From Burkholderiales bacterium (lineage in GTDB: Bacteria > Pseudomonadota > Gammaproteobacteria > Burkholderiales > SG8-39): a stretch of 64,000 nt of DNA. Below, in pieces: positions 8,293-45,858 of the stretch (position 1 is its first letter; each line of letters begins with the position of its first letter). Location of the stretch: the NCBI GenBank assembly GCA_035454685.1, contig DATIGN010000127.1:56269-120268 (forward strand), in the 5' to 3' direction. Made by a program: the position numbers and the translations under genes. Below the pieces are notes generated by a model. The model searched no databases, had not been told where the DNA came from, and saw nothing but the letters and a program-made list of their open reading frames with translations.

Positions 8293-9161
8293 CAGCGCTC
8301 TAGGAATCGTTCCAGCAGCCGCGCCAGCGCCGCGGGCTGGTCATGGTGCAGCATGTGGCCGCAATCGGCCAGTACCTCATATCGCAGATTTCGGAAGGCC
8401 GCGCGGCGCTCGGTGATATCGTCGGCGCCGAGCTTAAGCCGCTCCAGCGTCTCGGACTCCGCGGCTTCCACCCAGAGCACAGGCGCGGTGACCTCGCGCC
8501 AGCAGGCGCGCACCTCCTCGTAGCGGTACAGCACCGGGTTCACAATCTTGTGCGCGGGGTCGCTGCGTAAAACGACTCCCTCCCCCTCGACCTCGCGTCC
8601 CCAATGCCGCGCGAGGAACTCTGCCTTCTCGGGGGAGAGCCTGGGGTTGCTGTTGCGCAAGCGCTGCGCGAGCTCCGAGAAGGCCTCATAGCTCTTGAAG
8701 CCCGGCGGGCTGCGCAGCTCCTCAAGCCAGCGCGCATAGCGCTTCGGCGCCTGCTCGGACCGTGTCGGCGCCATGCCGAACCCCTCGAGGTTCGCGAGCC
8801 TCGCCACACGCGCGGGACGTACGCCGGCATATAACGCAGCGACGTTTCCGCCCAGGCTATGGCCGACGAGGTTCAGAGGCTTTACCTGCTCTATCTCGCC
8901 CAGCAGAAAATCGAGGTCGGCGATGTAGTCAGGGAACCAGTAGCAGTCCGCCTTTCCCCATTCGGTAAGCCCGTAACCGCGCCAGTCGGGGGCGTACACA
9001 TCCCAGTCCTGCCCGAGCTCATCCACGACAAATTGGAACGACGCCGACACGTCCATCCAGCCGTGTAGCAGCATGATCTTCGGCGCGCCGGGCGCGGGCC
9101 AGCGCCGTACGTGGTAGCGCAGCCCGCGAATTTGGACAAAGCGAGACTCGCTCTCTCTCAT
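8292..9161 (-). CDS. Alpha/beta-fold hydrolase
   Basis: HGW oxyanion region and nucleophile elbow GHSLGG. C-terminal His in CGHMLHHDQP. Confidence 0.8.
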   Translation of the reverse strand: MRESESRFVQIRGLRYHVRRWPAPGAPKIMLLHGWMDVSASFQFVVDELGQDWDVYAPDWRGYGLTEWGKADCYWFPDYIADLDFLLGEIEQVKPLNLVGHSLGGNVAALYAGVRPARVARLANLEGFGMAPTRSEQAPKRYARWLEELRSPPGFKSYEAFSELAQRLRNSNPRLSPEKAEFLARHWGREVEGEGVVLRSDPAHKIVNPVLYRYEEVRACWREVTAPVLWVEAAESETLERLKLGADDITERRAAFRNLRYEVLADCGHMLHHDQPAALARLLERFLER

Positions 9162-10402
9162 GCGAAGGGAAACGCTACCTGGGGCTCGCGGCCGGAGACG
9201 AGATCGGCGAGCGCACTTCCCGAGCCGCAGGCGAGGGTCCAGCCGAGCGTGCCGTGGCCTGTATTCAGAAACAGGTTCTTCAGGCGAGTTCGCCCAATCA
9301 CGGGCACGTTGTTCGGCGTGGCCGGGCGCAGCCCGGTCCAGTTCTCCACCGTGGTCACGGCACCGAGCGCCGGAAAGAGGCTGCGCACGCGGCGCGCGAT
9401 TGCCGCGCAGCGGCCAGGATCTACCGAAGTGTCGTAGCCCGCGAGCTCCGCGGTGCCGGCGGCGCGCAGCCGGCTGCCGAGCCTCGAGATCACGATCTTG
9501 TACGCCTCGTCGGTAAGGCTGACGGTGGGCGCGGCGCCAAACTCGGCCGGACCGAGCGGCAGGGTGATGGAATAGCCCTTCATCGGATACACCGGGATGC
9601 GGATGGCGAGCGGCTTGAGCAGGAGCGGGCTATAGCTTCCGAGAGAAACAACGTAGGCGTCCGCTGTTTCCACCGACTGCGTGTGCAGGCGGATTCCACC
9701 GACCCGATCACCCTCGGCCTCGATTGCGTCCACTGCGCAACCAAAGCGAAATGAGACCCCACGCGAAGCGGCGATGCGCGCAAGCTCCTGGGTAAAGCGG
9801 TACGCGTCGCCGGACTCGTCATCCGGGTCGTAGACGCCGCCGAGCACCGGCTCGTTCGAGTGCCGGAGGGCCGGCTCGAGCGCGAGGCACTCGGCGCCCG
9901 ATTTGATTTCGGGAGCCGCGCCAAGTGCGCGCAGCGCCTCGGCGTGGCGCGCCATCGCGTCGAAGTCGCTCTGGCGCGTGGCGAACTGCAGGATTCCACG
10001 CTCGAGCTCGTCGTAGCGCAGGCCGAGCTCACGGCGCAGCGCACGCAGGCACTCGCGGCTGTAGCGCGCCAGCGCGCCGAGCGTGCGCACGTGGCGCTCG
10101 AAGCGCCCGGGAAGGCATTCGTACAGGAAACGCAGGCCCCATTCCCATTGCGACCAGCTCGCGCGCGGACGGAAAAGCAGCGGCGCGTCCTCGCGCCCCA
10201 GCCAGCGCAGGATCTGCGGCACCGCGGCCGGCTTCGCCCACGGCTGGGCGTGCCCGGCGGCGATCTGCCCGCCGTTCGCGAACGAGGTCTCCAGCCCTGG
10301 CGCCTCACGCCGCTCGATCAACGTGACTTCGTGACCGGCCGCGGCGAGATACCAGGCGCCGGCGACGCCGACCACGCCGCCCCCGAGAACAATGACTTTC
10401 AC
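9158..10402 (-). CDS. dadA: D-amino acid dehydrogenase-like FAD oxidoreductase
   Basis: GGGVVGVAGAWYLAAAGHEVTLIE dinucleotide fold. DadA-like blocks IPVYPMKGYSITLPL and TGLRPATPNNVPVIGRT...NTGHGTLGWTLACGSG. Confidence 0.82.
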   Translation of the reverse strand: MKVIVLGGGVVGVAGAWYLAAAGHEVTLIERREAPGLETSFANGGQIAAGHAQPWAKPAAVPQILRWLGREDAPLLFRPRASWSQWEWGLRFLYECLPGRFERHVRTLGALARYSRECLRALRRELGLRYDELERGILQFATRQSDFDAMARHAEALRALGAAPEIKSGAECLALEPALRHSNEPVLGGVYDPDDESGDAYRFTQELARIAASRGVSFRFGCAVDAIEAEGDRVGGIRLHTQSVETADAYVVSLGSYSPLLLKPLAIRIPVYPMKGYSITLPLGPAEFGAAPTVSLTDEAYKIVISRLGSRLRAAGTAELAGYDTSVDPGRCAAIARRVRSLFPALGAVTTVENWTGLRPATPNNVPVIGRTRLKNLFLNTGHGTLGWTLACGSGSALADLVSGREPQVAFPFA

Positions 10403-33456: not shown

Positions 33457-34038
33457 ATGTGCGGCCGCTACGCGCTGCATGCGAATCCCGAGGTGCTGGC
33501 GCTGCAGTTCGGGCTCGATTCGGTGCCCGAATTCAGGCCGAGCTACAACATCGCGCCCGCGGCTGAAATCCTCGTGGTGCGGGCCGGGGCTGCGGCGCGC
33601 GCGCGCTGGGGCCTGCGCGGCCGGTTCGTCAACCTGCGCGCGGAAACCGTGCTCTCACGATTCGGAGCGAGCGGCCGCTGCCTCGTGCCGGCGAGCGGCT
33701 TCTATGAATGGAAAGCCGAACGCCGGCGCAAGCAGCCTTACTACTTTTGGCCCCCGCGCAATGCGCTGCTCGCGCTCGCCGCTCTGTGGGAACGGGATAC
33801 CTGCTCGCTCATTACTACGCATCCGAACCCGGTGGTACGCGCCGTTCACGATCGAATGCCCCTCATGGTGCCGAGGAGCCTTTATCAGGCGTGGCTGCAC
33901 GGCGACGAAACCATCCTCCGGTCAGCGCCCGAGATCGAGCTGCGCGCTCATCCAGTCAGTATGGCGGTAAACCAGGCCGCGAACGATTCGCCGGAGATGA
34001 TCGAGCCGGTCGAGCTAGCCCGCGGCCTGTTCGACTAA
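33457..34038 (+). CDS. yedK: SOS-response-associated peptidase (SRAP, YedK-like abasic-site processing protein)
   Basis: Invariant N-terminal [20 protein letters not shown] and HDRMPLMV motifs. Confidence 0.9.
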
Positions 34039-35055
34039 TCCCTGCACGCGCACACCGAGGAGCCGCACCGCCTTCATTCCCGCCTGAGTGCGCGCGGCGA
34101 GCTCCACCGCCCACGAGGCAATGAGGTCCGCATCCGCTGTCGGGCGCGACAGCGTATGACTGCGCGTCACGGTCTTGAAATCGGAATAGCGCACCTTGAT
34201 CGTCACGGTGCGCGCTGCGAGCCGCCGCCGCGCGAGCCAGTCGGCGTTCTCGCGCGCCATGCGATCGAGCTCGGCGCGGATGGCATCCGCATCGACCAGA
34301 TCGTGCGCATACGTATTCTCCGTGCTGGAAGACTTCGACTCGCGGTCCGGCACCACCGGCCGCGGATCGTCGCCTTGCGAGAGCTGGCGCAGCCAGTCGG
34401 CGAGACTGCCCACGGTGTCGCGCAGGAGCTGCGCATCCGCGGTGCGGATCTGCACCAGCCGTTCTATCCCGAGTCCGCGCAGCTTGCGGGCAGTCACCGG
34501 CCCCACTCCCCACAGCGCTTCCACCGGCAGCTCCTGCAGGAAGCTCTCCACGCGCTCAGGCGAGATCACGGTAAGCCCGTCGGGCTTGCGGTAGCCGGAG
34601 GCGATCTTGGCCAGGAACTTGTTCGGCGCGACGCCCGCCGAAGCGGTGAGCCCCGTCTGCTCGACGATTTGCTGCTTCAGCCGTCGGGCGACGCGGCTAC
34701 CGAACTCCTCGCCCCAGGCGTTCTCGGTGACGTCCAGATAAGCCTCGTCGAGCGAAAGCGGCTCCACCAGCGGCGTGCAAGCTCGCAGAATGGCCATCAC
34801 CTGGCTCGACACGCGCCGGTAGCGCTCGAAGTCCGGAGACACGATCATGAGCTCGGGGCAGAGTCTCAGCGCGCGCGCCATCGGCATCGCCGAGCGCACG
34901 CCGAACGCGCGCGCCTCGTAGCTCGCGGCCGCCACCACGCCGCGCGCCTGCGGCCGGCCCCCGACCGCCACCGGCTTGCCGCGCAGTTCCGGTTGGTCGC
35001 GTTGCTCGACCGAGGCGTAGAACGCGTCCATGTCCAGATGGACAACCCGCCGCAT
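34015..35055 (-). CDS. dinB: DNA polymerase IV
   Basis: Start at the internal ATG ([20 protein letters not shown]). [10 protein letters not shown] and Y-family palm/little-finger blocks. Confidence 0.92.
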
Positions 35056-35056
35056 A

Positions 35057-35072
35057 CTGTATATATTGCCAC
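35057..35072. promoter_or_regulatory. Imperfect LexA-box-like site (CTGT-N8-CCAC) in the 19-bp dinB/lexA divergent spacer
   Basis: CTGTATATATTGCCAC. The left half is perfect; the right half matches 2 of 4 positions of ACAG. It overlaps the TATATT -10 candidate. Confidence 0.45.
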
Positions 35073-35074
35073 TA

Positions 35075-35704
35075 ATGGACGGACTTACAGAGCGGCAAGC
35101 GCAGATCCTGCGCCTCGTCCGGGAGCTGACCGAGGTCTCGGGTTTTCCGCCGACCCGCGCCGAGATCGCCGAGCGCATGGGCTTTCGCTCTGTGAACGCC
35201 GCCGAGCAACACCTGCGCGCGCTGGAGAAAAAGGGCGCGATCGAAATCTCTTCCGGAGCCTCGCGCGGCATCCGGGTGCGCGATGGCCGCCCTGCCGCCC
35301 GCCTCGGGCGGCTGCTCGAGCTGCCATTGGTCGGCCGCGTCGCCGCGGGCAGCCCGATCCTCGCCGAGGAGAACCTGCAGGGCCGCTACCAGGTCGATCC
35401 CAATCTGTTCACGCCGCGCGCCGACTACCTGTTGCGCGTGCGCGGCATGTCGATGCGCGATGCGGGAATCCTCGAGGGCGACCTGCTCGCCGTGCACAAG
35501 ACGAGCGAAGCGCGCAGCGGGCAGATCGTGGTCGCCCGGCTCGCCGACGAGGTCACCGTGAAGCGCTATCGCCGGCGCGGGCATACGGTGGAGCTCGAAG
35601 CGGAGAATCCGGATTACAAGCCCATCGAGATCGACCTGCGGCGTGAGCCGCTCACCATTGAAGGAACCGCCGTTGGCGTAATACGCAACGGCAAGGCCCT
35701 CTAA
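35075..35704 (+). CDS. lexA: LexA repressor
   Basis: [15 protein letters not shown]...[36 protein letters not shown] cleavage site (VAAGSP). Ser/Lys dyad region (GMSMRDAGI...VKR). Confidence 0.95.
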
Positions 35705-35741
35705 GACATCTTAGAATGGCGCTGGCCCCAGGCCCGCGCCG

Positions 35742-37550
<1,809 letters not shown>

Positions 37551-37563
37551 GATCGAAGACCCC

Positions 37564-37953
37564 ATGCCAGACCGGCCTCTCAACCGCATCTGCTACGTCG
37601 AGGACGACGAGGACATCCAGCGCATCGTGCGCATGTCGCTCGAGCGGGTCGGCAAGATGACCGTCGCGGTGGTCGGCGATCCAACCCAGGCGATCGAAAC
37701 CATGGCTGAGTTTCGCCCCGACTTGGTGATGCTCGACTGGATGATGCCGGTGATGGACGGCCCGACGCTATTCCGGCAGATGAAGCTGCGTCCGGAAACG
37801 AGCAGCCTGCCGGTGGTGTTCATTACCGCCCGCGCCTCGCCGCGCGACCTGGACGACCTAAAAAACCTCGGGGCCGCTGGGACCATCTCGAAGCCGTTCT
37901 CGCCCAAGGACCTGCCCGACCAGCTGCGCGCGATCTGGGCCGCGCTCCCCTGA
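37564..37953 (+). CDS. Stand-alone receiver (CheY-like) response regulator
   Basis: 129 aa. EDDEDI acidic pocket, phospho-acceptor in LVMLDWMMP, T/K positions (FITA, ISKPF). No output domain. Confidence 0.85.
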   Translation: MPDRPLNRICYVEDDEDIQRIVRMSLERVGKMTVAVVGDPTQAIETMAEFRPDLVMLDWMMPVMDGPTLFRQMKLRPETSSLPVVFITARASPRDLDDLKNLGAAGTISKPFSPKDLPDQLRAIWAALP

Positions 37954-38006: not shown

Positions 38007-39248
38007 CTATTGCGCGGCGGGCTGCTGCTCGAACTTGCGCGCGAGAAAGCCGATGACCTCGTCTGCGTTACGGAACCGGGCATCGCGGTCCTTCTCCACC
38101 AGCTTGTCCAGCAAAGGCTGGTACTGCGCGAGCTCCGGCGGCAACGACGGCGGGATGGTGTTCAAATGGTGCATGGCGATCTCCATGGCGGTCTCGCCAT
38201 CGAACATGTGCCTGCCGGTGAGCATCTGGTAGAGCAGCACGCCCGCGCTGTAGATGTCTGTGCGCAGGTCGAGCGCACGCCCTTGCACCTGCTCCGGGCT
38301 CATGTAGCGCGGCGTGCCTAGCACTTCGCCGGCCCCGGTGCGGTCCGCTGCCGCGATGTTCTTCGCGATGCCAAAGTCCACGATCGAGAGCGTGCCGTCG
38401 CGGCGGAACATCAGATTCTGGGGCTTGAGGTCGCGGTGCAGGATGCCCTTCTCGTGAATGTCGCCGAGCGCGAACATGAGCTCGCGGAAGAGTCTCAGCG
38501 CCTCCTGCGGCGGCACCGGCCGGTTGCCCAGGCGCTTGCTCAGGTCGCCGCCCTCGAAAAACTCCATCACCAGATAGACGTTGTTCTCGTACCTACCGTG
38601 CCCGAGGATGCGGGCGACGTGGCGGCTCTGGATCCGCTCGACCATGGCGAACTCTTCCATGAACCGCTCCATCGCTTTGCGGTTGACCACGGCGTCCTGG
38701 CGCAGGATTTTGACCACGAGCGGCTCGTCGTCGTCCTCGCGCGAGGCGAGGTAAACCCGGGCCGTGCCGCCTTCGCCGATCAGGTGCAGGATCCTGATGC
38801 CAGGGATGCGCACCTTGACGCGCAGGTTCTGGCCTTCCATGCGCGACGCCAGGTCGGGCGACACGGTGCGCTCCACCGGAGTCGCGGTGAGCTCCCGGAT
38901 CGAGGCAATCAGCTTTTCGCGGGTGAGCTCCTGCTTGCGCTGATAGTCGTCCGCGCCGGCCTTGATCGCGCGCACGGCGATGATCTCGTTGCCGGCGCCG
39001 GTCAGAAACAGGACCTTCGGGCAGTCGTCGCGCCGCTTGAGCGCTTTCAGCCACTCCAGGCCGTCGCCGCGGCCGAGCATGTAGTCGAGCACGATGACGT
39101 CGTAGGAGCGCAGCGGAAAAGCGGCGCTCGGCAGGTCGTGCTCAAGCGGATCGTAGCCATCGATCTGGGCGTCTGGCCACTGGCTGCGGACGTAGCGCGA
39201 TACGAGGTTGCGCAGATCTTCGTCGTCATCGATCAGCAGGATGCGCAT
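38007..39248 (-). CDS. Receiver domain fused to a Hanks-type Ser/Thr protein kinase
   Basis: REC: MRILLIDDDEDL, VIVLDYML, GADDYQRK. Kinase: GEGGTARVY, VVKIL, HRDLKPQNLMF, DFGIAK, GTPRYMSPEQ. Confidence 0.9.
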   Translation of the reverse strand: MRILLIDDDEDLRNLVSRYVRSQWPDAQIDGYDPLEHDLPSAAFPLRSYDVIVLDYMLGRGDGLEWLKALKRRDDCPKVLFLTGAGNEIIAVRAIKAGADDYQRKQELTREKLIASIRELTATPVERTVSPDLASRMEGQNLRVKVRIPGIRILHLIGEGGTARVYLASREDDDEPLVVKILRQDAVVNRKAMERFMEEFAMVERIQSRHVARILGHGRYENNVYLVMEFFEGGDLSKRLGNRPVPPQEALRLFRELMFALGDIHEKGILHRDLKPQNLMFRRDGTLSIVDFGIAKNIAAADRTGAGEVLGTPRYMSPEQVQGRALDLRTDIYSAGVLLYQMLTGRHMFDGETAMEIAMHHLNTIPPSLPPELAQYQPLLDKLVEKDRDARFRNADEVIGFLARKFEQQPAAQ

Positions 39249-39258
39249 CGGCTACGCA

Positions 39259-39564
39259 TCACTCATACGCGATCTGCACTTTGGAGAGGTAGTCGCCGTA
39301 CTCGCTGATGCTCGCGTGCAGCGCGGCGCGGTCGCCGCTGCGCGCCCCTTCCTCGATGTACTTGCCGAGCGTGGAGACGTGAACGAAGCCGTATGAGCTC
39401 CCGACTCCCTTCATGCGGTGTCCAAGCTGGCGAAGCTTCTCGAAGTCGGCAGCGGCGAGCGCCGCGCGCAGAGCGTCGAGCTCCTGGTGCCGGTTGCTCA
39501 TGAACACCGGGATAAGGTCCTGCAGGTCCTTCGCTACAGTCACCGAGTAGTGATCCACGCTCAT
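39259..39564 (-). CDS. Histidine phosphotransfer (Hpt) domain protein
   Basis: 101 aa, four-helix pattern with LRQLGHRMKGVGSSYGF (consensus HxxKG). Confidence 0.8.
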   Translation of the reverse strand: MSVDHYSVTVAKDLQDLIPVFMSNRHQELDALRAALAAADFEKLRQLGHRMKGVGSSYGFVHVSTLGKYIEEGARSGDRAALHASISEYGDYLSKVQIAYE

Positions 39565-39570
39565 GGCGGC

Positions 39571-39576
39571 ATTATA
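39571..39576 (-). promoter_or_regulatory. Perfect TATAAT hexamer 6 nt upstream of the Hpt ATG (possible internal, leaderless-type promoter)
   Basis: Minus strand reads TAACTATAATGCCGCCATG. There is no SD and no convincing -35. Confidence 0.3.
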
Positions 39577-39598
39577 GTTACCGGATCTGCCCGACTAG

Positions 39599-40096
39599 TC
39601 AGGGATTGTCAGCAGGGACGGCGAGGTGGGGATGGATCGAGCGCGCCGTCTGCACGGCGAAGCGGGCTTCCGCGGCGGCCCGCGCCGAGCGCAGGATCTC
39701 GGCGAAATGCAGCATCGCCCCAAAGTGCCGCGGCTCGAGCTCGAGGGTGCGCCGAATGTCGCGCATGCATTCGTCATCGCGCCCGAGCAAATAGTGCAGC
39801 GCGGCCCGCTTGTGCCACGCCTCGGCGAAGTCCGGAGCCCGGCGCAGGAGCACGGTAAGGCGCGTCTCGGCAATATCGTAGCGGCGCGCGGCGATGTCGC
39901 TGGTCGCGAGGTCGAGCTCGCGCGCCGCGGCGTGATGCGGATGATGCATCCAGACATCCCAGATACGCTCTTCGGTCGGGGTTGCCTCGTCGGGAGCGCA
40001 GCGCGCAAGCTGGCGGAAAAGCGCGTCGAGCAGCGGCGAGGCGCGGGCCGGGCGCCGGGTGCGATAGCTACTGATGAGCCTCAGGATCTCGGTCAA
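39599..40096 (-). CDS. Small TPR-repeat protein
   Basis: 165 aa with an apparent TTG start. APDFAEAWHKRAALHYLLGRDDECMRDIRRTLELEPRHFGAM resembles TPR units. Confidence 0.65.
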   Translation of the reverse strand: MTEILRLISSYRTRRPARASPLLDALFRQLARCAPDEATPTEERIWDVWMHHPHHAAARELDLATSDIAARRYDIAETRLTVLLRRAPDFAEAWHKRAALHYLLGRDDECMRDIRRTLELEPRHFGAMLHFAEILRSARAAAEARFAVQTARSIHPHLAVPADNP

Positions 40097-40108
40097 GCGA
40101 GGCAGATC

Positions 40109-43090
40109 TTAGTGGAAATCGCGCGAGCCGGTAGCGAGCGGCCCGAGCAGCGCGCTATAGTCCGAGAGGCGCTGGGCGACGAGATGCACTACTTCACCAT
40201 CGCGCTCGACCACGCCCGCCACGCCCATCAGCCGGGCGCCGAGCAGCTCGCGCCGCTGGCGCTCGAGCAGGTCGCGCCACACCACGATGTTCATGCATCC
40301 GGTTTCGTCCTCTAGCGTGACGAATATCACTCCGCTTGCCGTGTCGGGCCGCTGCCGGCAGGTGACCAGCCCGGCGACGCGCGCCGGGGCGCCGTGCGGT
40401 CTTGATTTGAGCTCTTCAGCCTTGAGGAGCCGCATCTTGTCCAGGCGTTTCCTCAGCAAAGCCAGAGGATGGCGGCCAAGCGTGAGCCCGAGGCTCGCGT
40501 AGTCGGCGACGATCTCCTCGCCTTCGGGCGGGGCTTCGAGCGCCGGTACGCACTCGTGCGCCGGGATGTCGAGCGGCGCGCGTTGCACCGCGCCCGCGGC
40601 TACCCAGCGCGCGAAGCGCCGGTGCCCGGCAAGCGACTCCAGCGCACCGGCGGCCGCCAAGCAGCGCAGATCGCCTTTGTTCAATTTCAGATCATGAATG
40701 GAGCGATACGGCCGGCCTGCCGCGATGCGCCTGCCTTCTCCTTCGGCAAGGCCGCTCACCATGCGCAAGCCCAGGCGCACGGCCCCGCCCTCGAGCGTGC
40801 AGTCCCACTCGCTCAGCTGCACATCGGGCGGACGCACCTCCACGCCGTGCCGGCGGGCATCCTGCACGAGCTGCGCCGGCGCGTAAAAGCCCATCGGCTG
40901 GCTGTTCAGCAGCGCGGCGCAGAATGCCGCCGGATAATGGCACTTGATCCAGGACGAGACGTACACGAGCAGCGCGAAGCTGGCCGAGTGCGACTCCGGG
41001 AAGCCATACTCGCCGAAGCCGAGGATCTGCCGGTAGATGGAATCGGCAAACGCCTCGCTGTAGCCGTTGCGTCGCATCCCGGTTTTTAATCGTTCTTCAA
41101 AAGGCTCGAGGCCGCCGCTGCGCTTCCATGCCGCCATCGACCGGCGCAGCCGGTCGGCCTCGCCCGGCGTGAAGCCCGCCGCCACCATCGCAAGCTCCAT
41201 CACCTGCTCCTGAAAGATGGGAACGCCCAGCGTTCTCTTCAAAACCGCTTCCACTTCGGGGCTCGGATAAACCACGGGCTCCAGGCCGCGCCGGCGCCGC
41301 AGGTAGGGATGCACCATGCCGCCCTGGATCGGTCCCGGGCGCACGATCGCCACCTCGATGACCAGATCGTAGAAATTCTGCGGCCGAAGGCGCGGCAGCA
41401 TGCTCATCTGGGCGCGTGACTCGATCTGGAACACGCCCACGGTGTCGGCCTTCTGGATCATGCGGTAGACCGCGGGATCTTCCGGCGGAACCTCGTGGAT
41501 TGGGAGATTGATGAATTGCAAAGCCCTTCTTATGGCGCTCAGCATGCCGAGGGCGAGCACATCGACCTTGAGCAGACCGAGCGCCTCGAGGTCGTCCTTG
41601 TCCCACTGGATGACGCTGCGATCCGGCATCGCGGCGTTCTCGATCGGCACGAGCTGCGCAAGCGGACCGCGCGAGATGACGAAGCCGCCGACGTGCTGCG
41701 AAAGATGGCGCGGAAAGCCGACGAGGGTCTGCACGAGCTCCAGGAACTGGCCGTCCAGGCACCCGGGCAATGCGCTGCGGGTATCCCAGAATGTCAAGCC
41801 CTTCGCCAGACGATCCACCTCGTCGAGCGGCAGGCCGAGTGCCTTGCCGACATCGCGCACGGCGCTTTTCGGGCGATAGCAGATCACCGTCGCGGCAAGC
41901 GCGGCGCGCTCGCGGCTGTACTTGCGGTAGACGTACTGGATCACCTCCTCGCGCCGCTGGTGCTCGAAGTCGACGTCGATATCGGGCGGCTCGTTGCGCT
42001 CGCGCGACACGAAGCGCTCGAACAGCATGTTCATGCGCGCCGGGTCGACCTCGGTGATGCCGAGCGCGTAGCACACCACCGAGTTTGCCGCTGAACCCCT
42101 GCCCTGGCAGAGAATTTCTTGGTCTCGAGCGTAACGCACCACGTCGTGCACGGTAAGGAAGAAGGGCTCGTAGCCGAGCTCGGCGATGAGCCTAAGCTCA
42201 TGCTCCATCAGCTCGGCGACCTTCGCCGGCGCGCCCGCCGGGAAGCGCCGGCGCAGTCCCTGTTCGGCAAGCATCCTCAGCCACGAAGCAGGGGTATGGC
42301 CCTCCGGCACGAGCTCCGCGGGATACTCATACTTGAGGCAATCCAAGGAGAAGCCGCAACGTTCGGCGATGACGAGCGTTTCGGCGAGGAGCTCGGTCGG
42401 ATAAAGCTGCGCGAGGCGCATGCGCAGGCGCAAGTGCCGCTCGGCATTGGGAAAGAGCGCTTGCCCGCATTGCGCGACCGGTCTGCCCAAGCGCACCGCG
42501 GTGAGGACATCCTGCAGGCGCCGGCGCGAGCGCACGTGCATGTGCACGTCGCCGCTCGCCACCAAGGGAAGCATGCTTTTTCTGGAGATGTTCTTCAGAA
42601 AAGCCATCCTTGCCCGATCGTTCGGCCCGCAATGCAGCTCGGTCCCGATCCATGCATGGCCGTGGAAACGTTCCGCGATCCACGCTGCAGGAGCCGGATC
42701 CTGTCCGGGAATCCAGAGCATCAGCGCGCCGGTGCCGGAAACCGATTCCACGTCCGCAAGCTTGAGGGAGTAAGCACCCTTCTTGCTGCGTCGTCTTCCG
42801 GTGGTGATAAGAGAGGAGATCGCCCCATACGAGCGCCGGTCGGCGGCGAGCAGCACGAGCTTGACTCCCTCGGCGAGGATCTCGGTGCCGAGGATGAGCG
42901 GCAGGCCGCAATCCTTCGCTTGCTGGTGCGCGCGCACCGCGCCGGCTAGCGAGCACTCGTCGGTCAGCGCGAGCGCCCTGTAGCCGAGCGCCTGCGCGCG
43001 CGACACGAGCTCCTCGGGATGCGACGCGCCGCGCAGGAAGCTGAAGTTGGAGAGGCAGTGCAGCTCGGCGTAATCAGGCAAAGAGGCCAT
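40109..43090 (-). CDS. dnaE2: Error-prone DNA polymerase DnaE2 (ImuC)
   Basis: Start at the internal ATG ([29 protein letters not shown]). PHP and Pol III alpha core blocks. 993 aa. Confidence 0.95.
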
Positions 43091-44261
43091 GCAGGTACCA
43101 TTCGTAGGTCGAGCTGCCGCCAGCTTCCCGGTAGACCCAGGCGAGCGCGCCGTCGGACAGCCGGGCGACGAAGTAATCGCGCCTCGCGTCATCGCCGTCC
43201 CACCAGCCCGACTCGATGCGCTCAGGACCGGCGAGCGCAGTGAATTCGCTTTCTTTGAGCTTTTTCGGTTCAAGAAGCCAAACTGGGCGCGGGCCGGGAG
43301 CCGCATACGTTCGCGGATCCCATTCGCCGGGCTCGACGCGCCGCCAGGCGTGCTCCGGGCGATGATCCGGCAGCGCGGCGAAGCCGTGCACGGCGGCATT
43401 GCCCAGCCGGGCGCGCAACCGCTCGAGGAGCTCGGCCCAGTCTTCGACTGCGCGCGCCGCATCGCCGAACATCCCTGCGCTGGCCGCCTGGAGCGGGGCG
43501 AAGTCGCCGGCCTCGAGCCGCATCGCCGTTACCGGCTCGGCCAGCTGCACCTGGGCAAGACGCTCGCGCAGCACTCGCGCCATGCGCTCGGCATCCCGAG
43601 TCGCGGAAGCGAGCGTGATCTCGACGCTGCTCGCGCGGCTTTCGTGCAGCAGGACGAGCCGGAAGGCGCGAATGCCCTCGTGTCGCGCCGCAAGCAGGCC
43701 TGCGAGCTGCATGAGCAGCCGGCGGGCGCCGAAAAGCAGGCTTTCGGCGTGAGCCACTTCCGCGGGCAGCTCGAGCCTTGCATCGAAGCGCCGCGGCGGC
43801 GCGAAAAAGCTGCGCGGTTCGGGAGCCGCCCCAAGCGCCCGGTCGAGGTCTTTAACCACCGCCGCGCCGCAGCGCAGCGCAAGCCCTTCGCGCGGCAGCT
43901 CGAGCAGCGCTCCGACGGTAGAGATCCCGACTGCGCGGAGCAATTCGACGTCGAAGCCGGTCACCTCGACCGGGAGCGACTCCAGCTGGGTTTCGCCTTC
44001 GCCGCGCGCGAGCCACAGCGCGGCGCGCGCGGTGGACGCGGCCGCGAGGTAAAACGGGTAGCCGAGCTCGCCCAGCCCGGCCGCCAACTTCTGCGTGAGC
44101 GGCCTGAATCCTCCGAGCAATCGCAGGCTGCCGTGCACTTCCAGCAGCAACTCCTGCGGCGGCTCGAGCGAGACTCTAGGCGTGAACTGGCACGTCCAGG
44201 CGGCAATCGGCGCGAGCGCCTGCGGCGGCAGGCACGGGAAGTGGAGTGCGACCCAAAACAT
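43074..44261 (-). CDS. imuB: ImuB, Y-family-polymerase-like mutasome subunit
   Basis: [17 protein letters not shown]-terminus is typical of ImuB. Position between imuA and dnaE2. Confidence 0.85.
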
Positions 44262-44883
44262 GGAAAGGCCTGTTCACGGAAACGAGGAGCGGCGCCACCG
44301 CAGGCGCTCCCCTGCGCTTGAGGATGCGCAGCGCGAGCGCGCCGCCCTCAGGCTCGATAGCGATGCGCAGGGCGGCGGGCGAGGTCTCGCGCGCAGCTTC
44401 GGGCGGGCGAAAAAGCGTCACCCAGGCCGGGCCACCTTGCGCGGCGAGCGCGAGGCGCCGCAGCTCTCGGTAGCCCGGGCGGCGCAACCAGGCGAGCAAG
44501 GCATGGCAGCTTCTCGAGCGCAGCACTTGTTCTGCGGCCCACAGCGCATCGCGCCGGCCGGGCGTACGCATCACCACGAGGTTGGCGAGATCCACGCCCA
44601 CGGCGGCGAGCGCCGGCGCGTAGGGAAGATGCGGCGGCGCGAGCCATACCACGCGCTTGCCGGCCCAGGAAAGCGCCGCCAGGGTCGGCAGCACGATGCC
44701 GAGCTCGCCTATGCCTTCATGCCCGCAAAGGATCTCGGTGAGCGCGCCGGTCGGCCAGCCGTCTCCGGGCAAGGCGCGGTCCAGGTCTGGATATGTCGTT
44801 GAAAGGGTGGGGGAAAAATAACCGGCGACCCGACCGCGCCAGACCGGGTGCCGCTCGAGAATATGTTTCAGGGCAGCGTTCAT
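44176..44883 (-). CDS. imuA: ImuA, RecA/SulA-like mutasome subunit
   Basis: GWPTGALTEILCGHEGIGELGIVLP is typical of ImuA. Start is ambiguous (ATG 44883 or 44895). The 3' end overlaps imuB by 86 nt. Confidence 0.8.
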   Translation of the reverse strand: MNAALKHILERHPVWRGRVAGYFSPTLSTTYPDLDRALPGDGWPTGALTEILCGHEGIGELGIVLPTLAALSWAGKRVVWLAPPHLPYAPALAAVGVDLANLVVMRTPGRRDALWAAEQVLRSRSCHALLAWLRRPGYRELRRLALAAQGGPAWVTLFRPPEAARETSPAALRIAIEPEGGALALRILKRRGAPAVAPLLVSVNRPFHVLGRTPLPVPAAAGARADCRLDVPVHA

Positions 44884-44885
44884 GA

Positions 44886-44905
44886 TACTGTACATAAATA
44901 CAGTA
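44886..44905. promoter_or_regulatory. LexA (SOS) box, perfect CTGT-N8-ACAG palindrome
   Basis: TACTGTACATAAATACAGTA lies immediately upstream of, or overlapping, the imuA start. Confidence 0.85.
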
Positions 44906-44970: not shown

Positions 44971-45858
44971 CTACTCGCAGAAGAACTCGACCACATCGGT
45001 CGCGCCGGCGCGCGACTGGCCGAACGCGATCCAACCGTGACCGCGCAGCGTGAACTCCTCGCGGCGCAGGGTGATTTCCTTGTCGCCCTCGATAGTGACG
45101 AACGTCCCGTTTGCGCTGTGATCGGTGAGCACGAACCTGTCGAGGCGCCGCTCGATCTTGCCGTGCGCGCGCGACGCCATGCGCTCCGTGATCACGAGGT
45201 CGGCCGACTGGTCCCGGCCCATGGCGAGCGACGGGCGCTGCGCCGAGAGCACAACCTCGGTCTCGTGCATCTTCAGCCGCAATGTGGTGTTGCGCGGCCT
45301 GAAAACGGCCTTGTGCGAGGCGAGTGTGGTCATGTCCTGGCTGTGCTGCCACATCAGCTCGTAGACCTGGATCTCGTGCGCCTTGCCTTTCGCCTGAATG
45401 GTGGTGATGGTGCGCGTGCTGGCCTTGAGCCTCGGCGACATCATCAACACGGTGTCGCGTGCAGTGATGATCTGACCCTTGCTCGCGACGGCGGCGAGGC
45501 GCGAAGCCACGTTCACCGCGTCGCCGAACACGTCGCCGTCGCGCTCGACCACCTGGCCGTAGTTGAAGCCGATGCGGATCCCGAGCGTAGTGCTGCCGAT
45601 GGGGGGCAGCTCGGAAATCGCGAGCTGCATCTCCATCGCGGCGCTGGCCGCGTCGTCCGCGCTGCGAAAGGCGGACATCACTTCGTCGCCGATCGTCTTG
45701 ATCACGCGGCCCTTCGCGGCCTGCGTCTTCTGGCGCATGATGTTGACGCAGCTTTCCACCGCCGCGTGCGCGACCGCGTTGCCCGCGGTCTCGTAGAGCT
45801 TGGTGCTGCCGCTGACGTCGGCGAAAAGAATCGCTGCCTCGCTAGCCTGTTCCGCCAT
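44971..45858 (-). CDS. Class III adenylate/guanylate cyclase domain fused to a C-terminal FHA domain
   Basis: Cyclase: ILFADVSGSTKLY, IKTIGDEVMSAF, FGDAVNVASRL. FHA: GRDQSADLVI...SRAHGKI...LTDHSANGTFV. Confidence 0.85.
   Translation of the reverse strand: MAEQASEAAILFADVSGSTKLYETAGNAVAHAAVESCVNIMRQKTQAAKGRVIKTIGDEVMSAFRSADDAASAAMEMQLAISELPPIGSTTLGIRIGFNYGQVVERDGDVFGDAVNVASRLAAVASKGQIITARDTVLMMSPRLKASTRTITTIQAKGKAHEIQVYELMWQHSQDMTTLASHKAVFRPRNTTLRLKMHETEVVLSAQRPSLAMGRDQSADLVITERMASRAHGKIERRLDRFVLTDHSANGTFVTIEGDKEITLRREEFTLRGHGWIAFGQSRAGATDVVEFFCE

Follow-up and report, generated by a model that had tools for sequence, protein, structure and literature searches.

A predicted four-step phosphorelay nested between lexA and the imuA-imuB-dnaE2 operon in a clade of uncultured soil Burkholderiales

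How far does a DNA damage-inducible mutagenesis operon extend when genes of a signalling pathway follow its polymerase gene at a distance of a few nucleotides? This question is raised by a 64,000-nucleotide stretch of DNA from a Burkholderiales bacterium (GenBank assembly GCA_035454685.1, contig DATIGN010000127.1, positions 56,269 to 120,268; hereafter the window), in which imuA, imuB and the error-prone polymerase gene dnaE2 are followed on the same strand by genes for a TPR protein, a histidine phosphotransfer (Hpt) protein and a receiver (REC) domain fused to a Hanks-type Ser/Thr kinase. An earlier note on this DNA had read these six genes as a single damage-inducible unit that runs from a LexA box without a break into the kinase gene. 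We consider it fairly probable that the region is instead a conserved neighbourhood of several transcription units, in which a complete phosphorelay is nested between lexA and the imu genes and may be functionally tied to them.

The six genes are arranged head to tail on the minus strand (38007-44883), and the table of open reading frames (ORFs), the sequence and hidden Markov model (HMM) searches upheld their common direction, their identities (for ImuB by product names and position) and the exact intergenic gaps of 12 nt (dnaE2/TPR), 34 nt (TPR/Hpt) and 10 nt (Hpt/kinase). The ORFs of imuA and imuB overlap by 86 nt, an overlap that is the same in the relatives L001 and L004, and the start of dnaE2 overlaps imuB by 17 nt. 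DnaE2 carries the Pfam domains PHP, DNA_pol3_alpha, finger, HHH_6 and OB. ImuB returned no significant match from Pfam, NCBIfam or the PDB, its sole HMM signal being a weak match to IMS_C (Pfam, E=0.044). Its position, its overlap with both neighbours and its product names ('protein ImuB' in IMG, 'DNA polymerase Y family protein' from PGAP) nonetheless support the assignment as ImuB. A terminator scan of the 12-, 34- and 10-nt gaps predicted no terminator-like site, in agreement with the earlier observation that they contain no hairpin with a U-tract, and Rfam and tRNA scans of the 64 kb window found nothing.

The TPR gene lies between dnaE2 and Hpt in 34 of the 65 loci in which these two are linked, 12-40 nt after dnaE2 in every case, and probably belongs to the imu operon as its fourth gene. 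The AlphaFold2 (AF2) model of its product shows a TPR superhelix of generic form, and a fold search of the PDB with it singled out no particular relative; the protein would most simply be an accessory protein-binding subunit that is co-translated with DnaE2. A search for TPR homologues retrieved clade members only (at least 76% identity) and was thus uninformative on whether such genes pair with dnaE2 elsewhere.

At the head of the string lies the only perfect 20-mer LexA box of the window (TACTGTACATAAATACAGTA, 44886-44905), as had been reported. One box per 64 kb would not be significant alone, and its significance derives from conservation: a perfect CTGT-N8-ACAG core precedes imuA in all metagenome loci (27 of 27), and each genome locus that includes the imuA 5' end has a box that is perfect or deviates by no more than one core position. 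Across approximately 124 related loci, the perfect core is limited to positions upstream of imuA (45 occurrences) and of lexA (11 occurrences), and never stands before Hpt or before the histidine kinase (HK) gene that follows lexA. The imperfect box TACTGTATATATTGCCACTA occupies the entire 19-nt space between the start codons of dinB and lexA; because these starts are so close, the promoters must lie inside each other's coding region, or the transcripts must be leaderless. Weaker LexA boxes are likewise present upstream of lexA in relatives. Two other matches to CTGT-N8-ACAG in the window (9259-9274 and 34137-34152) fall within ORFs, are not conserved in relatives and were set aside as probably due to chance; one of the two has a GC-rich spacer.

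The earlier note had overlooked three plus-strand genes that converge on the kinase gene, namely lexA and the genes for a PAS histidine kinase and a stand-alone receiver (35075-37953; Table 1). Judged by sequence, HK, receiver, Hpt protein and REC-kinase would make up a complete His-Asp-His-Asp phosphorelay, located between two LexA-boxed units. The stand-alone receiver, which is conserved in all relatives, displays an acceptor pocket with EDDED, DLVMLDW, T and K motifs, and the residues D8/D9, D55, T83 and K105, the GEGG loop, K180, HRDLKPQN, DFG and SPE of the REC-kinase are invariant in the orthologue alignment A1; every catalytic residue of the latter thus appears intact. Most relatives have an additional gene for a REC-class III adenylate/guanylate cyclase between Hpt and REC-kinase (e.g. 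L025, 8867-9997), and many have a DUF3391-HD-GYP gene after the REC-kinase (e.g. L025, 11294-12505), which suggests that the ancestral relay had several outputs and that the lineage of the window is a reduced one from which both were lost. An extra gene between the REC-kinase and the convergent receiver was seen in five loci (L095, L096, L142, L145 and L029); it combines segments that resemble Hpt, REC and HK (32-39% to the window proteins) and probably encodes a hybrid kinase.

Table 1. Genes and sequence elements of the lexA-relay-imu region (window positions; nt, nucleotides; aa, amino acids).
Feature	Position	Strand	Basis and remarks
SRAP/YedK-family gene	33457-34038	+	PF02586, E=4e-40; part of wider SOS-gene neighbourhood
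dinB (Pol IV)	34015-35055	-	Pfam IMS, IMS_HHH, IMS_C; divergent from lexA
Imperfect LexA box TACTGTATATATTGCCACTA	35055-35074	.	two mismatches; sole near-match in window
lexA, 209 aa	35075-35704	+	Pfam LexA_DNA_bind and Peptidase_S24; Ala-Gly cleavage site, Ser/Lys dyad
-10-like hexamer TAGAAT	35712-35717	+	between lexA stop and HK start
GC-rich hairpin GGCGCTGGCCCCAGGCCCGCGCC	35718-35740	+	directly after TAGAAT, before HK ATG
Membrane PAS histidine kinase (HK), 602 aa, non-hybrid	35742-37550	+	Pfam PAS, HisKA, HATPase_c; SHELRTP H-box
Stand-alone receiver, 129 aa	37564-37953	+	PF00072, E=4e-24; 13 nt past HK stop; convergent with kinase gene
Receiver fused to Hanks-type Ser/Thr kinase (REC-kinase), 413 aa	38007-39248	-	Pfam Response_reg E=8e-16, Pkinase E=2e-48
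Stand-alone Hpt phosphotransfer protein, 101 aa	39259-39564	-	PF01627, E=3e-9; HRMKG histidine motif
Putative -10 element CTATAAT	39571-39577	-	perfect; in 34-nt TPR-Hpt gap; TATAAT ends 6 nt before Hpt ATG
Conserved DNA motif CTGACAATCCCTGAC	39598-39612	-	overlaps TPR stop codon, upstream of CTATAAT
Small cytoplasmic TPR protein, 165 aa	39599-40096	-	Pfam TPR families; TTG start 12 nt past dnaE2 stop
dnaE2 (error-prone DNA polymerase III alpha)	40109-43090	-	NF004225, 1422 bits vs cut-off 939; third gene
imuB (divergent, 395 aa)	43074-44261	-	between imuA and dnaE2; second gene
imuA	44176-44883	-	NCBIfam NF033429 ImuA, E=3e-60, 203 bits vs curated cut-off 150; first gene
LexA (SOS) box TACTGTATTTATGTACAGTA	44886-44905	-	ends 2 nt before imuA ATG

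The claim that the string continues without a break into the Hpt-kinase pair did not hold up, as a perfect CTATAAT precedes Hpt in the window and, in 94 of 97 related loci (37/39 in one set and 57/58 in another), is found in the 110-120 nt before this gene, the three exceptions reading CTATAAA (two) or ATATAAT (one). No other YTATAAT occurs in the window, and in the related loci CTATAAT is nearly absent outside the Hpt upstream region (51 copies in total in the 657 kb of the 39-locus set and 79 in the 847 kb of the 58-locus set). Its distance to the Hpt start codon varies from 3 to 77 nt across relatives (6-10 nt in the window and its closest relatives), a variable spacing as expected of a -10 box but not of a ribosome-binding site, and no Shine-Dalgarno sequence is visible upstream of Hpt. 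A position 6 nt before the ATG, as in the window, is that of promoters whose transcripts have little or no leader, and with this conserved element in front of it the Hpt-kinase pair looks like a transcription unit of its own. In some relatives, terminator scans and folding revealed GC hairpins before the -10 element in the dnaE2/TPR-Hpt gap, none of them followed by a U-tract.

A second conserved element, CTGACAATCCCTGAC, occurs only once in the window and once per TPR-bearing locus, in the same place each time, and is invariant in alignment A2. As it is read as ADNP* in the window and as LTIPD* in relatives, the constraint must act on the DNA and not on the protein, and we regard the motif as a candidate regulator-binding site upstream of the putative Hpt promoter. 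Together with the conserved -10 element, it argues against one regulatory region for all six genes, as had been supposed. A conserved TGACAA-like motif was considered as a -35 element and rejected, since it lies approximately 30 nt (its second half-site 20 nt) from the -10 box, which is too far.

A comparable situation is found on the opposite strand, where the lexA stop lies 37 nt before the HK start and where relatives carry TATAAT or TAGAAT within the lexA-HK gap (30 of 44 loci in one tally). The hairpin GGCGCTGGCCCCAGGCCCGCGCC in this gap varies in stem sequence across relatives, with its pairing kept (z of -2.4 to -5 in most loci), and is a candidate insulator, attenuator or operator.

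To determine how widely this arrangement is kept, species-representative genomes were scanned with the REC-kinase orthologue alignment, the most divergent orthologue (that of L039) served as query for metagenome contigs, the window proteins were mapped onto the related loci by tblastn, and the junctions were then tallied. On one side, dnaE2 is co-directional with Hpt and less than 1 kb upstream of it in 24 of 29 species-representative genomes and 41 of 42 metagenome contigs (65 of the 71 informative contigs in total); on the other, lexA is upstream of HK in 19 of 19 genome representatives and 37 of 38 metagenome contigs (56/57 informative in total). The REC-kinase orthologues are 66-98% identical, beyond which identity drops to 36% or less, and all of them belong to metagenome-assembled genomes of uncultured Betaproteobacteria/Burkholderiales. 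The earlier note had named an absence of the linkage from related genomes as a sign of chance adjacency; the dnaE2-Hpt linkage is real and not due to chance, but is limited to this clade of uncultured soil Burkholderiales.

Deviating loci fall into several kinds. In L041 (5080-8580) and L158 (1683-5234), an insertion of 3.4-3.5 kb separates dnaE2/TPR from Hpt; that of L041 carries Mla-like ABC transporter genes and has a copy of CTATAAT at either end. In L039 (5305-16292), the most divergent orthologous locus, lexA, imuA, imuB, HK and REC share a strand, while dnaE2 and Hpt are divergently oriented, the former with a separate LexA-like box (8434-8453) and the latter with a separate CTATAAT. 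The relay here lies between imuB and dnaE2, a second arrangement that keeps the association with lexA and the imu genes. The metagenome scan seeded with L039, meant to find further cases of this alternative arrangement, retrieved no close relative, only more of the standard layout.

Outside the clade, an exhaustive search of representatives detected some 30 further clusters of ~410-aa REC-kinases at 37-45% identity, and five of these distant neighbourhoods were found to hold relay or chemotaxis-like genes. One is a cassette of GAF-PAS-HK, REC, REC-cyclase, REC-kinase, Hpt and REC, in another a hybrid PAS-HK-REC-Hpt adjoins the REC-kinase, and in yet another REC-kinase and Hpt are fused; such fusions of the homologues support the order of phosphotransfer set out below.

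In the organisation that we favour, (i) imuA-imuB-dnaE2-TPR would form a LexA-repressed mutasome operon with a lineage-specific TPR extension; (ii) Hpt and REC-kinase would be transcribed from their own conserved -10 element as a nearly leaderless transcript; and (iii) on the opposite strand, converging on this second unit, lexA would be followed by HK and REC with a -10-like box of their own. Phosphoryl groups would be passed from the membrane PAS histidine kinase to the stand-alone receiver, from there to Hpt and finally to the REC-kinase (and to the REC-cyclase where present), and phosphorylation of its receiver would switch the Ser/Thr kinase activity of the REC-kinase, the cyclase and HD-GYP proteins being putative further outputs in most relatives. 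The promoters of the relay itself would drive its expression, to which read-through from the two LexA-controlled units may add: each half of the relay directly follows LexA-boxed genes with no terminator in between, and DNA damage may thus raise its expression above the basal level. That the relay has stayed nested between lexA and the imu genes would reflect a functional tie of the signalling pathway to SOS mutagenesis, and it is in this sense that we infer a functional link between kinase and mutasome.

Several observations weigh against this organisation or against the tie that it implies. First, a two-hexamer sigma-70 promoter scan of the Hpt upstream region gave no match, with no acceptable -35 at 16-18 nt; for lack of a canonical -35 at this spacing a strict promoter scanner reports nothing, and the call is made from the -10 element and its conservation, the Hpt -10 box being a prediction from sequence. 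Second, there is no terminator between dnaE2/TPR and Hpt or between lexA and HK, such that co-transcription is possible and may dominate after damage. Third, three loci (L027, L032 and L035) keep the relay with imuABC not adjacent to Hpt; L032 and L035 include lexA, L027 stops short of the lexA region, and in L032 a ROK kinase and other genes are found upstream of Hpt. Fourth, none of the SOS genes imuA, imuB, dnaE2 and lexA occurs in the five distant REC-kinase neighbourhoods examined. Fifth, no sequence feature points to a substrate of the kinase. Finally, SRAP, NAPRTase and MFS genes are present beyond lexA in 19 of 20 related loci (dinB in the closest loci only), and with synteny kept this far part of the conservation may be plain inheritance.

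These last points lead to the most serious alternative, which we hold to be possible though rather unlikely, namely that a self-contained signalling cassette was inserted a single time, in an ancestor of the clade, between lexA and the imu genes, has been inherited there ever since and has no bearing on damage or mutagenesis. The distant cassettes without SOS genes imply that such a relay works alone elsewhere and that the SOS linkage is specific to the clade; the relay genes have promoter elements of their own and no LexA box; the conservation on the lexA side extends to the unrelated NAPRTase and MFS genes; and some members have lost the adjacency to imu and yet kept the relay. The opposite flank tells against simple inheritance, because the junction has survived while the region upstream of imuA was reshuffled in at least seven ways: among 18 loci, the imuA upstream neighbour comes in at least seven variants, which include type VI secretion system (T6SS)-type FHA, cyclase-FHA, molybdenum cofactor (MoCo) oxidoreductase, SnoaL, MFS, Lhr helicase, TPR and DctP genes, and the conserved block accordingly ends exactly at the imuA LexA box. 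Nor would inheritance alone account for L039, where a second arrangement still nests the relay inside a lexA-imu array, or for the finding that each of the two relay units nearly always follows a LexA-boxed unit directly and in the same direction, with no terminator in between.

Much less room is left for the six-gene unit proposed before, a single LexA-repressed operon in which TPR, Hpt and kinase would depend almost entirely on damage-induced read-through from the imuA promoter for their expression, which we judge quite improbable. What stands of this proposal is the close spacing on one strand, the lack of terminator-like sites in the gaps, the LexA box at the head and the conserved gene order; what does not fit is the internal conserved -10 element and CTGACAATCCCTGAC before Hpt, seen in ~97% of relatives. 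The same -10 box is present even where the Hpt unit follows unrelated genes (L027, L032 and L035), where Hpt is divergent from dnaE2 (L039) and where it is 3.4 kb away (L041 and L158). That TATAAT is no promoter at all, but an AU-rich translation-initiation or RNA-processing element of a polycistronic mRNA that replaces the missing Shine-Dalgarno sequence, would agree with its ribosome-binding-site position 6-10 nt from the ATG in the window and its closest relatives, yet is very unlikely given that the exact hexamer is invariant beyond mere AU-richness, lies 29-77 nt from the start codon in many relatives and recurs upstream of HK on the other strand.

If the nested relay is indeed tied to the SOS genes, it could serve as a second, environment-sensing input to mutagenesis: damage would raise both halves of the relay by read-through from the LexA-controlled promoters of lexA and imuA, and the membrane PAS kinase would, via Hpt and the REC-kinase, determine by phosphorylation whether the ImuA-ImuB-DnaE2 mutasome, LexA or RecA is turned on or off. 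We put this forward as a speculation that is more likely wrong than right by a wide measure. Cyclic nucleotides would also take part in most relatives, and such licensing of induced mutagenesis is undescribed in bacteria.

How does this region compare with known systems? The imuAB-dnaE2 genes of Caulobacter crescentus and the lexA2-imuA-imuB-dnaE2 genes of Pseudomonas putida are established examples of the cassette, and the mycobacterial ImuA'-ImuB-DnaE2 mutasome is another (PMC10421592). In the cassette as known, a gene for the RecA/SulA-like ImuA comes first, one for ImuB, a catalytically dead Y-family polymerase, second and dnaE2 third. The window shares with it these three genes (imuB as judged by position and product names), their order, the overlapping ORFs and a CTGT-N8-ACAG LexA box at the promoter, and with the Pseudomonas version a nearby lexA, L039 even having a lexA-imuA-imuB array. 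It differs from the known cassette by the extra TPR gene, by Hpt and REC-kinase directly after it, by a lexA that is followed by HK and a receiver, and by a short ImuB (395 aa) that is too divergent for the Pfam and NCBIfam models.

Phosphorelays built of separate proteins include KinA-Spo0F-Spo0B-Spo0A of Bacillus subtilis and the HptB pathway of Pseudomonas aeruginosa, which ends in the REC-PP2C/kinase protein HsbR. Akin to both, the predicted relay has an HK, keeps its intermediate receiver and its Hpt as separate proteins and ends in a receiver joined to an output domain, and akin to the HptB-HsbR branch its output would be on protein Ser/Thr phosphorylation and not on DNA; it differs in its Hanks-type output and in its distribution over two convergent units, each downstream of a LexA-controlled gene. 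Closest in architecture are the REC-Hanks kinases P0308, P0317, P0320, P0340 and P0310, which match the window protein in domain architecture and length (~410 aa) at 37-45% identity and often adjoin genes for Hpt, hybrid HK-REC-Hpt or REC-cyclase proteins. Their neighbourhoods differ in being without SOS genes, the SOS linkage being seen only in the orthologous clade (at least 66% identity).

Ser/Thr kinases linked to DNA damage are known as well, for example RqkA of Deinococcus radiodurans and YabT of Bacillus subtilis, which phosphorylates RecA. Like the REC-kinase, these are Hanks-type kinases connected with the DNA-damage response, the connection being a genomic one only in the present case; they differ in that they are not known to be response regulators, to receive phosphorelay input or to be encoded beside a mutasome or lexA. 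A literature search (open-access text) found no description of imuABC or lexA together with kinases or a phosphorelay, nor of receiver-Hanks kinases, in accord with the earlier impression that no module of this kind had been described. The parts, i.e. the imuABC cassette, the LexA boxes and a phosphorelay with a receiver-kinase output, are thus all of known kinds, and it is their stable nesting that is new.

Abundant soil Burkholderiales have, across an entire clade, kept a predicted four-step relay between lexA and the operon of an error-prone polymerase. Should the two be functionally tied, environmental or membrane sensing would, together with Ser/Thr phosphorylation, be connected to the mutagenesis that damage induces, a matter that touches on the long-debated control of stress-induced mutation. 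Otherwise, the region would still offer a clean natural example of an Hpt-fed receiver-Hanks kinase whose cis elements, a consensus -10 and a motif independent of reading frame, are conserved to an unusual degree.

Two features at the margins of the region deserve mention. A gene for a class III adenylate/guanylate cyclase-FHA protein, FHA being a phosphothreonine-binding domain, lies directly upstream of the imuA LexA box (44971-45858, minus strand). The notion of an FHA protein as a general partner or reader of the kinase was dropped, as cyclase-FHA is found only in the window and L042 and T6SS-type FHA in L001, L004-6 and L026, while the other loci differ. At the far end, beyond lexA, the SRAP gene and dinB converge, with their 3' ends overlapping by 24 nt.

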